Notes under the pieces: generated by a model
Databases searched by the model: none
Seen by the model: the letters and a program-made list of their open reading frames with translations, nothing else
What the model was told of the DNA's origin: nothing
Translations under genes and position numbers: made by a program
Part shown: one piece after another, positions 37,435 to 39,801 of the stretch
Layout: every line of letters begins with the position of its first letter
Position numbering within the stretch: the stretch's first letter is position 1
NCBI GenBank assembly: GCA_020348985.1
Contig: CP070761.1
Location: 1,732,591 to 1,796,590, forward strand
Source: Candidatus Thorarchaeota archaeon
Lineage (GTDB): Archaea > Asgardarchaeota > Thorarchaeia > Thorarchaeales > Thorarchaeaceae
DNA length: 64,000 nt
Reading direction: 5' to 3'

Positions 37435-39801
37435 ATGCTCTCTGATAGAGTAGAACGCTTGAGGAAACAGAGCGTTCGTACAAGGCCCTATATCTCCACA
37501 GAGCGAGCACAGCTGCTAACCGATTTCTATCAAAGTGGTGCCAGTAGCGGCGTGTCGGTACCTATCGCACGGGCTCTTGCTTTCAAGCATATTCTGTCAA
37601 ACATGACTATTGGCATAAATGATGGAGAACTGATAGTTGGTGAACGTGGGCCGGTGCCCAGGGCCACACCAACATATCCGGAACTATGCTGTCATAGTCT
37701 CCAGGATTTCTCGATACTGAACTCAAGAGAGAGATCCAGATTCATTGTGAGTGAAGAATCACGCAGAATCTATGATGAAGAAATCATCCCATTCTGGAAT
37801 GGCAAGACTATGAGAGAGAAGGTCTTCGCGGCAATGTCAGAAGAGTGGATGAGGGCCTTCAATGCAGGAGTCTTCACAGAGTTCATGGAACAAAGAGCAC
37901 CAGGTCACGCAATTCTTGATGACAAAATCTACCACAAGGGATTGAACGATTTCAAGCATGAAATCGAGGCTCAGATTGGCACTCTAGATTCTGAGAATGA
38001 TCCTGATGCAGATGCAAAGGAACAGGAACTCCGGGCTATGGCGATAACAGCTGATGCGCTGATAGTGTTTGCACATCGACATGCAGATAGAGCAAAAGAA
38101 ATGGCGGCCAAGGAGTCGAATTCAGAAAGAAGAACCGAGCTTGAAAGGATTGCAGATATTTGCTCGCATGTTCCTGCTAATGCTCCAAGGAATTTCTGGG
38201 AAGCACTACAGATGTACTGGTTTATCCATCTGGGAGTTATCCTAGAATTGAATGTATGGGATTCCTTCAACCCGGGTAGACTAGATCAGAATCTCTATCC
38301 TTTCTACAAGAGAGATCTTGAGTCAGGGCAATTGGACGAAACGACGGCCAAAGAGCTGCTCCACTGCTTCTGGATCAAATTCAATAACCAACCTGCTCCA
38401 CCAAAAGTAGGTATCACAGAAGAACAGAGTGGAACCTATCAGGACTTTGCGTTGATCAATTCTGGAGGTCTGAAACAAGACGGGACAGATGGTGTTAACG
38501 AGCTCTCTTTCCTCATTCTGGACGTTCTGAAAGAGATGCATCTCATGATGCCCAGTGTGTGCATCCAGTTAAGTGAGAAGAATCCAGATGAGTTCCTGAA
38601 AAGAGCGATTGAAGTCATAAATGAAGGATTTGGACAGCCTTCTGTTTTCAGCACTGATACTATAATCAAGGAGTTTCTACGTGCTGGAAAGTCACTTGAA
38701 GACGCTAGGTCTGGTGGTCCTAGTGGCTGTGTGACAATCAGTGCATTTGGTAAGGAGAGCTGCATCCTTACGGGGTACTTCAACTGGCCGAAGATTCTTG
38801 AGATCACACTCAACAATGGTTTCGATCCGAACACCAAACAGCAGGTAGGACCACAGACCGGAGATCCATTGACATTCATATCGTACGAGGAGCTCTTCAA
38901 CGCATATACTGCTCAGCTGAGGTATTTCATTGATCTAAAGATTGAAGGTAACAACATCATCGAACGTCTTTATGCCGAGGAAATGCCTGCACCATTTCTT
39001 TCTATGCTCTTTGATGACTGTATATCAAAAGGGAAGGATTACCACGATGGTGGACCTAGATACAAAAGCACCTACATCCAAGGCGTAGGATTGGGCACTG
39101 TAACTGACTCTCTCTCCGCAATCAGATACCATGTCTTTGACAGGAAAGACATCAATATGAAAGACCTTCTGGAGGCCCTTTCCACTAATTTTGAAGGGGC
39201 AGAGAAGACTCGCCAAATACTCTTACAGCGAACTCCCAACTTCGGAAACGATGACGATTATGCCGACTCTATCGCCCAGGAGGTCTTCAATGTCTATTTC
39301 GAAGCGCTTGACGGCCGTCCTAACACAAAAGGCGGAGAGTATAGAGTCAACCTCCTTCCAACCACAGTACACATCTACTTTGGCCAAGTTACGGGCGCCA
39401 CTCCCAACGGAAGGGCAGCTTGTGCACCGCTGTCTGACGGGATCTCACCGAGTCCCGGTGCCGACAAGAATGGACCCACCGCCGTCATCAAATCCGTGGC
39501 AAAGATTGACCATGTCAAGACAGGCGGAACACTGCTGAATCAGAAGCTCTGGCCCCAGTTACTAGCCAGCAAAGAGGGCTTTGAGAAGCTGGCTCATTTG
39601 ATTAGGACCTACTTCCGGATGGAAGGGCATCACATACAATTCAATGTAGTCGACGCAGAAACCCTGAAACAGGCCCAACTGGATCCCGACTCACACAGAG
39701 ACCTCATTGTTCGTGTTGCAGGTTACAGCGACTACTTTGTGGACATAGGTAGAGACCTGCAGGACGAGATTATCGGTCGAACCGAACATAAACGATTCTA
39801 A
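37435..39801 (+). CDS. Glycyl radical enzyme, HypD (4-hydroxyproline dehydratase)-like, CVT variant
   Basis: FTEFMEQRAPGH, DSFNPGRLDQ, SGCVT Cys loop, LPTT.H, RVAGYS Gly loop; alternative start 37369. Confidence 0.9.
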   Translation: MLSDRVERLRKQSVRTRPYISTERAQLLTDFYQSGASSGVSVPIARALAFKHILSNMTIGINDGELIVGERGPVPRATPTYPELCCHSLQDFSILNSRERSRFIVSEESRRIYDEEIIPFWNGKTMREKVFAAMSEEWMRAFNAGVFTEFMEQRAPGHAILDDKIYHKGLNDFKHEIEAQIGTLDSENDPDADAKEQELRAMAITADALIVFAHRHADRAKEMAAKESNSERRTELERIADICSHVPANAPRNFWEALQMYWFIHLGVILELNVWDSFNPGRLDQNLYPFYKRDLESGQLDETTAKELLHCFWIKFNNQPAPPKVGITEEQSGTYQDFALINSGGLKQDGTDGVNELSFLILDVLKEMHLMMPSVCIQLSEKNPDEFLKRAIEVINEGFGQPSVFSTDTIIKEFLRAGKSLEDARSGGPSGCVTISAFGKESCILTGYFNWPKILEITLNNGFDPNTKQQVGPQTGDPLTFISYEELFNAYTAQLRYFIDLKIEGNNIIERLYAEEMPAPFLSMLFDDCISKGKDYHDGGPRYKSTYIQGVGLGTVTDSLSAIRYHVFDRKDINMKDLLEALSTNFEGAEKTRQILLQRTPNFGNDDDYADSIAQEVFNVYFEALDGRPNTKGGEYRVNLLPTTVHIYFGQVTGATPNGRAACAPLSDGISPSPGADKNGPTAVIKSVAKIDHVKTGGTLLNQKLWPQLLASKEGFEKLAHLIRTYFRMEGHHIQFNVVDAETLKQAQLDPDSHRDLIVRVAGYSDYFVDIGRDLQDEIIGRTEHKRF

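Follow-up and report, generated by a model that had tools for sequence, protein, structure and literature searches.

A widespread clade of HypD-family glycyl radical enzymes with threonine in place of the CXE glutamate

The trans-4-hydroxy-L-proline dehydratase HypD is a glycyl radical enzyme (GRE) with a glutamate two residues after its catalytic cysteine, in a motif written CXE. A 64,000-nucleotide stretch of the genome of a Candidatus Thorarchaeota archaeon (assembly GCA_020348985.1, contig CP070761.1, positions 1,732,591 to 1,796,590; hereafter the window) contains a gene for a relative of HypD in which this motif reads CVT. Does an enzyme that lacks the glutamate still dehydrate hydroxyproline, or does it act on a different substrate or by a different radical chemistry, as the first-pass annotation of the window suggested? 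The analysis described here indicates that the gene belongs to a large, conserved subfamily which probably, though far from certainly, still dehydrates trans-4-hydroxy-L-proline (abbreviated Hyp), with Asp276 as the acid-base residue and a rebuilt hydrogen-bond network replacing Glu436 of HypD. The gene and its two diagnostic loops are:

37435..39801, + strand: HypD-family GRE of 788 amino acids, referred to as the CVT type (Pfam, NCBIfam, PDB, AlphaFold model)
38713..38751, + strand: Cys loop GGPSGCVTISAFG, with the catalytic Cys432 (38728-38730) and with Thr434 (38734-38736) where HypD has Glu436
39712..39729, + strand: glycyl radical loop RVAGYS, residues 760-765, with Gly763 at 39721-39723

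The open reading frame at 37435-39801(+) translates without a stop into 788 residues that include ARSGGPSGCVTISAFGKESCILTGY and LIVRVAGYSDYF. A longer reading frame from 37369 is possible, but the start at 37435 is favored because homologues of 787-788 amino acids align from residue 1-2. Codons 38728-38736 read TGT GTG ACA, and two substitutions are needed to turn ACA into GAA. An independent metagenome contig (run X2, from another sediment sample) matches positions 37244-39444 with 0 differences, which confirms the threonine codon. The junction with the upstream gene, which encodes a SPOUT-type methyltransferase, is spanned by a contig (X6, 37255-37446), and so is the junction with the downstream ribosomal protein gene rpl3 (X2, 39580-40199). 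Translation, codon and independent contig thus agree that this is a HypD-like GRE with threonine replacing the CXE glutamate and no read error, as the first-pass annotation had it, and the further motifs that it listed are all found in the translation (RAPGH, VWDSF, TYQDF, LTGY and LLPTT).

The protein has the PFL-like barrel (PF02901, 768 bits), the C-terminal Gly-radical domain (PF01228, 123 bits) and the catalytic cysteine (Cys432, equivalent to HypD Cys434) by which members of the GRE superfamily are recognized. It scores 1242.4 bits against the NCBI HypD equivalog model NF043068, for which the cut-off is 1100. Its best match among solved structures is Clostridioides difficile HypD (PDB 6vxc) with 1060 bits, and the next is glycerol dehydratase with 583 bits. 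The alignment with 6vxc contains a single one-residue gap near the N-terminus, and HypD numbering equals query numbering plus 2, a constant offset. By this alignment the query has the HypD residues H160, D278, S334, D339, F340, C434, Y450, T645 and G765, while E436 is replaced by Thr. An AlphaFold model of the protein (pLDDT 91) superimposes on 6vxc with a TM-score of 0.98 and an rmsd of 1.3 Å.

The first-pass annotation assumed that the CXE glutamate serves as the base in GRE eliminases, HypD included. This role holds for the diol dehydratases and CutC but not for HypD. There the acid/base role is assigned to Asp278, a residue that the query shares: this aspartate is proposed to act as base towards the substrate amine and as acid towards the hydroxyl, and Glu436 is a hydrogen-bond acceptor for the leaving 4-hydroxyl that also touches His160 (Backman et al. 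2020, PMC7077986). The HypD variants E436Q, H160Q, D278N and D339N are all inactive (PMC7077986). Because CVT replaces the CXE motif in the query and HypD is inactive as the E436Q variant, the gene is filed here as an apparent variant subfamily of the HypD family and not as a proven HypD.

The CVT type can be compared with several characterized GREs. With HypD (C. difficile; PDB 6VXC/6VXE; NF043068) it shares 55-60% identity over the full length, the same fold, Gly loop and catalytic Cys, and identical residues at His160, Asp278, Ser334, Asp339, Phe340, Tyr450, Thr645, Phe152 and Trp277. Again as for HypD, the activase gene is adjacent in the majority of clade loci, and some loci of both the CVT and the CVE type have an associated prolidase. 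It differs from HypD in the replacement of Glu436 by Thr and in thirteen more clade-specific changes, as well as in the location of the host-family gene, which sits between the SPOUT and rpl3 genes with no activase or P5C (pyrroline-5-carboxylate) reductase gene nearby. The B12-independent glycerol and propanediol dehydratases and CutC have the fold and radical relay in common with the query and are likewise 1,2-eliminases, but they are only 33-37% identical, the CXE glutamate is their proposed base and their substrate pockets are unrelated. The X-succinate synthases (BSS, ASS/MAS) have the GRE fold and a single-Cys loop, but they show 27-29% identity in structural alignments and 287-332 bits, and they do not have the Hyp-binding residues. 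HplG, HpyG and HpzG, like the query's family, act on hydroxyproline derivatives and show that such GREs diversify by substrate isomer; they are far more distant from the query (412, 491 and 471 bits, respectively, versus 1060 for HypD), and all of them keep the CXE motif, whose glutamate is hydrogen-bonded to the substrate (PMC13450708).

One possibility that the first-pass annotation had left standing was that CVT is a singleton under relaxed selection. Searches of a collection of 5.8 billion proteins instead revealed a large conserved clade. CVT was present in 117 of the 120 best matches (70-85% identity), 116 of which were recognized by a motif pattern while one (P0002) was missed by it; the other three matches read GPSGCVEISAF. 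Loci from species-representative genomes, 80 in all, divide into 37 with GGPSGCVT(I/V)S(A/G)FG and 43 with GG(S/T/A/C)SGCVE(T/V/A/S)GAFG. The archaeal holders of the CVT type are Thor-, Heimdall-, Hermod- and 'Prometh'-archaeota, Bathyarchaeia, Thermoproteota and Theionarchaea, and the bacterial holders are Aminicenantes, Acidobacteria, Gemmatimonadota, WOR-3, Latescibacteria, Synergistetes, Bipolaricaulota and Phycisphaerae, a taxonomic pattern which points to horizontal spread among sediment anaerobes. The threonine is encoded by ACA in 15, ACC in 14 and ACG in 8 of the 37 CVT loci.

Conservation was assessed from an alignment in which 157 sequences of the CVT type were set against 44 of the CVE type; a representative library clustered at 50% identity merges the two types and was of no use for delimiting the clade. 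H160, D278, S334, D339, F340, C434, Y450, T645 and G765 are invariant in the 157 clade sequences, and all experimentally defined HypD residues except 436 are invariant in both groups. The CVT Cys loop is kept in 154 of the 157 members, the radical glycine is present in all 155 sequences that align at its column, and at positions with 97% conservation or more in the clade the query deviates just twice. The CVT type appears to be a distinct, ancient and horizontally spread subfamily with the Cys loop GGPSGCVT(I/V)S(A/G)FG, and its genes appear to be under selection and not decaying. No description of the CVT variant was found in the published literature. Huang et al. (2018) listed archaeal 'HypDs' as a separate clade and passed over the motif without comment (PMC6219649). 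Relative to the literature the CVT type appears to be new, and its members are at present annotated automatically as HypD.

Loss of the glutamate is accompanied by other changes. Positions were considered clade-specific if one residue reached 90% conservation or more in the CVT type but had a frequency of at most 5% in the CVE type. Fourteen positions were found (HypD numbering): Y144F, T161A, E333Q, T338Q, S/N/M378C, I396V, L/M416F, T/S/A431P, E436T, T/V/A437I, G438S, Y445C, L/M453W and M616A. None of the 13 positions other than 436 was discussed by Backman et al. (PMC7077986). When the twelve catalytic or substrate-contacting residues of Backman et al. (PMC7077986) were taken as the active-site set, 8 of the 14 positions fell within 3 residues on either side of a member of the set, where about one is expected by chance (hypergeometric p about 3e-6).

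A few members of the clade combine both states. P0056, P0064 and P0103 have the entire CVT-type suite of substitutions but Glu at position 436. In a FastTree phylogeny the CVT-type clade is monophyletic (97) with these three sequences nested within it, and although a quick IQ-TREE search placed a long outgroup inside the CVT clade, FastTree and IQ-TREE both support the split between the CVE type and the sequences bearing the CVT suite. A tree constrained to hold the suite-bearing clade together was better by 5 lnL units and had the best likelihood (p-AU 0.60). Because a tree holding only the Thr-bearing sequences together was not rejected (p-AU 0.37), the Glu-bearing members may be either revertants or early intermediates; the trees fit either.

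The distribution of the two types among Asgard archaea bears on whether they have one function or two. A GRE was detected at E <= 1e-100 in 210 of 301 sampled Asgard genomes. About 53 genomes, mostly of the host family, fall in a band of 67-73% identity to the query, and all 30 loci fetched from this band read CVT. Another band at 58-62% identity contains about 85 genomes of other families and is mostly of the CVE type; of the 20 loci fetched from it, 16 read CVE and the remaining 4 were not matched by the pattern, and in the six loci of this band that were examined the activase is adjacent and the gene lies away from ribosomal genes. None of the 301 genomes is in both bands, and a second HypD-like gene was absent from five further CVT-holding genomes. 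The separation of the two types agrees better with one function in two versions than with two distinct functions, although it is only suggestive because the genomes are related and many are incomplete. Some GRE match occurs in 73 of 76 genomes of the host family. Other GRE paralogues, with about 40% identity to the query (E 1e-107 to 1e-166), were observed in G010, G032, G042, G051 and more host-family genomes, where they occur beside or instead of the CVT type. These paralogues, rather than the CVT type, may be the alkyl- or benzylsuccinate synthases (Ass/Bss) of the Asgard literature.

Genomic contexts elsewhere in the clade are more informative about the substrate. An activase is adjacent in 21 of 37 CVT loci, compared with 30 of 43 CVE loci. 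In one bacterial subclade (L014, L017, L019 and L022, and partly L018 and L023) the CVT gene lies in an operon of a GntR regulator, the activase, the GRE, an M24 Xaa-Pro peptidase, a proline-racemase-family protein, an OCD/mu-crystallin reductase, an EamA transporter and DUF4125. The hosts of such operons are Aminicenantes, Acidobacteria and Gemmatimonadota. The racemase-family protein has the motif MCGH...DRSPTGTG with a Cys/Thr pair, which we take to be the signature of trans-3-hydroxy-L-proline dehydratase. The product of that dehydratase is reduced to proline by OCD-family reductases. A dehydratase for trans-4-Hyp would be at home in an operon whose products free Xaa-Pro and Xaa-Hyp dipeptides and convert trans-3-Hyp. 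GntR regulators and prolidases from the same sequence clusters flank CVE genes as well.

Several other associations were noted at CVT loci. DUF4125 (about 185 amino acids; for example 13357-13911 of L014) adjoins CVT GRE/activase pairs in bacteria and Thermoproteota (L014, L019, L066, L074 and L082); it was found at 5 CVT loci and 0 CVE loci in the sample and is a possible accessory protein. Three Bathyarchaeia loci (L028, L041 and L042) have a bactofilin-like gene, the CVT GRE and then gcvPA, gcvPB and a short-chain dehydrogenase/reductase (SDR) gene, with no adjacent activase. A Heimdallarchaeota locus (L012, the same locus as L109) has an activase, the CVT GRE and, at 12488-13498, a gene of the 2,4-diaminopentanoate dehydrogenase family (DAP_DH_C plus DapB_N). 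That family functions in ornithine/aminoketopentanoate fermentation and also at the end of the HplG hydroxyproline pathway. A major facilitator superfamily (MFS) transporter gene lies upstream at a Hermodarchaeota CVT locus. The Bathyarchaeia, Heimdallarchaeota and Hermodarchaeota contexts contribute little to the question of function. The neighbors of the remaining CVT loci (KaiC-like, methyltransferase, subtilase, radical SAM/B12, GDPD and anthranilate synthase genes) gave no consistent signal.

A GRE has to be activated, and the first-pass annotation correctly saw no activase next to this one: the nearest radical-SAM gene (32599-34194) is ELP3-like, and the window contains no activase. Only one PFL-like GRE was found in the host genome, and only one GRE activase scored above the cut-off; the activase gene is unlinked and interrupted by an assembly gap. 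The activase and the pair of host genes considered below are:

G000:C1:754917-755531, - strand: GRE activase (TIGR02494, 198 bits), about 1.015 Mb from the GRE
G000:C1:1697068-1699119, - strand: OCD/mu-crystallin-family gene and threonine-dehydratase-like gene (an EutB/EutC-like pair; locus L091), about 71 kb upstream of the GRE

The 5' part of the activase gene (G000:C1:754917-755700(-); locus L001, 1432-2209) is lost in a scaffold gap of 100 N, which hides the N-terminal CxxxCxxC region, and this run of N indicates that the genome, deposited as one contig, is a scaffold. The neighbors of the activase are an ORF resembling a GNAT acetyltransferase and leuS. Two relatives (G133 and G208) have full-length, unlinked activases, and another (G080) has neither a GRE match nor an activase. 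As for genes that could act on the product, no proline-racemase-family gene was found in the host genome beyond a weak PhzF-like match, and in a search for P5C dehydrogenase the two aldehyde dehydrogenases of the host genome were both below the cut-off. The closest models to the host OCD gene are archaeal alanine dehydrogenase and cyclodeaminase, with no equivalog cut-off reached, and the OCD/threonine-dehydratase-like pair could handle cyclic imino acids.

Family membership, conservation, co-variation, genomic contexts and the insertion site are established here; by analogy with HypD, we infer a substrate, a product and a rewired mechanism for the CVT type. The single activase of the genome, about 1 Mb away, would place the radical on Gly763, from which it would move to Cys432, and Cys432 would then abstract hydrogen from C5 of the bound hydroxyproline. 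The substrate carboxylate would be bound by Ser332, Tyr448 and Thr643, the amine by Asp276 and, via water, by Asp337, and the ring by Phe150, Trp275 and Phe338. Asp276 (HypD Asp278) would deprotonate the amine and protonate the leaving 4-hydroxyl, and the product would be pyrroline-5-carboxylate. The role of Glu436, that of placing the leaving hydroxyl together with His160, would pass to a rebuilt hydrogen-bond network, with E436T, T437I, G438S, T431P, T161A, E333Q, T338Q, Y445C, L453W, Y144F and M616A (HypD numbering) as the co-varying changes. The likeliest new hydrogen-bond partners would be the glutamines gained next to Ser334 and Asp339, with Thr434 as a further candidate. Physiologically, hydroxyproline from collagen-like or cell-wall peptides would be used by protein-fermenting archaea and bacteria of sediments.

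A number of points weigh against this proposal, and several of them favor a switch in specificity or chemistry, in which the enzyme would act on an L-proline scaffold differing at C4 or C3, such as another Hyp isomer or a 4-O-substituted Hyp (for example glycosylated Hyp from the cell-wall proteins of plants and algae). CXE is kept in all characterized GRE eliminases and isomerases according to a 2026 review (PMC13450708), and the E436Q variant of C. difficile HypD is inactive (PMC7077986). The first-pass annotation had suggested looking for a compensating acid; none of the 14 clade-specific substitutions introduces Asp or Glu, and two of them (E333Q and E436T) remove a Glu. The changes are concentrated around the site of the 4-substituent while the residues that bind the carboxylate, amine and ring are invariant, which has the look of a specificity switch. 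A substrate of this kind would not need a hydrogen-bond-accepting glutamate, and the reshaped pocket, with smaller residues from E436T, Y445C, M616A and T161A and a larger one from L453W, would fit it. The HypD relatives HplG, HpyG and HpzG have diversified by Hyp isomer (PMC13450708), and the Heimdallarchaeota locus described above pairs the GRE with a 2,4-diaminopentanoate-dehydrogenase-family gene and not with Hyp genes. Moreover, the operon that informs on the substrate was seen in a single bacterial subclade (L014, L017, L019 and L022) and is essentially one evolutionary instance, and the Asgard locus offers ribosomal-protein and RNA-modification genes only, hence no functional context. 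The P5C reductase ProC (TIGR00112) was not found above the cut-off in the host genome (86% complete) or in 40 other members of the family, nor in 5 other CVT-type holders, although the model was positive in 14 of 14 control genomes. Because ProC was likewise not found in 3 of 5 CVE-type Asgard genomes, its absence is a lineage trait that is uninformative about the product; with no ProC in the 41 host-family genomes, proline metabolism there would proceed by another route. Against a switch, CVT and CVE never occur together in the sampled genomes, where paralogues of differing substrate should sometimes co-occur, and there are clade members with Glu in the same background. The operon with a prolidase, a trans-3-Hyp dehydratase and a reductase points to free hydroxyprolines of the collagen type, and the CVE genes are flanked by the same GntR and prolidase families. 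The isomer-specific relatives all have CXE and are far more distant from the query (412-491 versus 1060 bits). The different substrate or chemistry put forward by the first-pass annotation is therefore a serious rival, but it is not favored in view of the operon context, the exclusion of the two types from each other's sampled Asgard genomes and the Glu-bearing members.

The inactivity of the E436Q variant (PMC7077986) and the lack of an adjacent activase or pathway gene in the window would also be expected if loss of the glutamate had inactivated the enzyme and the gene persisted by another role or by inertia. Such a non-enzymatic remnant is very improbable, given that 157 sequences drawn from two domains of life show no variation at Gly763, Cys432 or any substrate-binding residue, that synonymous Thr codons are in use in intact ORFs, and that an activase adjoins the gene at the 21 of 37 loci noted above, with a single matching activase in the host genome. 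Hardly credible at all is anaerobic hydrocarbon activation by an alkyl- or benzylsuccinate synthase, which is the published reading for GREs of Hermodarchaeota and Thorarchaeota. Zhang et al. (2021) annotated Asgard GREs with 29-33% identity to AssA/BssA in this way (PMC8163825), and metagenome-assembled genomes of Hermodarchaeota do carry CVT genes (L026 and L029), although the CVT type of the published sequences could not be confirmed. The query reaches 1060 bits with HypD but no more than 287 with TutD and 332 with MasD, its model has a TM-score of 0.89 to BSS and MASS versus 0.98 to HypD, its NCBIfam matches include no X-succinate synthase model, and all of the Hyp-binding residues are conserved. 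Dehydration of trans-4-hydroxy-L-proline through Asp276 and a rebuilt network thus continues to be the favored reading. Whether by Hyp dehydration without the CXE glutamate or by action on a different abundant proline derivative, it is conceivable, and proposed here tentatively, that the CVT clade represents a new functional class of GRE eliminase.

In the window, the GRE gene lies in the order archease, SPOUT methyltransferase, GRE, rpl3, rpl4, (rpl23), rpl2. The surrounding features are:

32599-34194, + strand: ELP3-like radical SAM protein (ELP3_N, Radical_SAM, Radical_SAM_C; Pfam), not a GRE activase
36073..36504, + strand: archease, conserved upstream neighbor (Pfam PF01951; synteny in about 22 related loci)
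36519..37376, + strand: SPOUT-type RNA methyltransferase (Methyltrn_RNA_3; Pfam PF02598), left flank
37377..37434, + strand: spacer of 58 nt from the SPOUT stop to the GRE start, with purine-rich Shine-Dalgarno-like stretches (GAGAGGTG, AGAAGGA)
39802..39949, + strand: pre-rpl3 spacer of 148 nt, with an A/T-rich TTTTAAAA box and complementary stretches that may form a hairpin leader (read from the sequence)
39950..40957, + strand: rpl3 (archaeal L3), right flank (Pfam, synteny)
40972-41760: rpl4, downstream of rpl3
42047-42766: rpl2, downstream of rpl4

Direct reading of the 37377-37434 spacer revealed no obvious TATA-like box, and the GRE is inferred to be co-transcribed with the archease and SPOUT genes. 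The 39802-39949 spacer appears to be part of the ribosomal-protein operon and not of the GRE gene; the SPOUT-rpl3 spacer in relatives that lack the GRE is about 120 nt. In Thorarchaeota-type loci the archease-SPOUT block is preceded, in conserved synteny, by the ELP3-like gene. An order including at least SPOUT-GRE-rpl3 occurs at 8 loci in the collection of species-representative genomes and at 22 of 29 CVT loci fetched from other Asgard genomes, most of the remainder being short contigs. Three members of the family, G010 (same genus), G032 and G080, have an empty site at which archease-SPOUT and rpl3 are directly adjacent. These relatives bear out the first-pass statement that the GRE splits a normally adjacent SPOUT-rpl3 pair, and in light of them either the GRE is an insertion or the empty sites arose by precise loss; in both cases the position is fixed and its occupancy differs among family members. 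The insertion that the first-pass annotation suggested therefore stands insofar as the gene sits within an otherwise adjacent pair, but the synteny indicates that it is not recent and that the gene is old and inherited within the host family.

If the CVT type does dehydrate Hyp, the supposedly universal eliminase motif would be dispensable and Asp278-type chemistry would be enough. A natural clade without the glutamate and with coordinated second-shell changes is in any case a ready-made experiment on the role of this residue. The model NF043068 names CVT proteins trans-4-hydroxy-L-proline dehydratase despite the missing essential residue, and either the model or the mechanistic assumption needs revising. 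Among archaeal PFL-like GREs, none is functionally characterized according to the 2026 review (PMC13450708), so that Hyp dehydration or action on another proline derivative, if true, would give such an enzyme its first assigned function, and genes published as hydrocarbon-activating enzymes of Asgard archaea would be re-assigned. Most genomes of the host family carry the CVT gene. It suggests that these archaea contribute to carbon and nitrogen cycling in sediments by fermenting hydroxyproline and peptides, and not by the hydrocarbon activation proposed in the literature.

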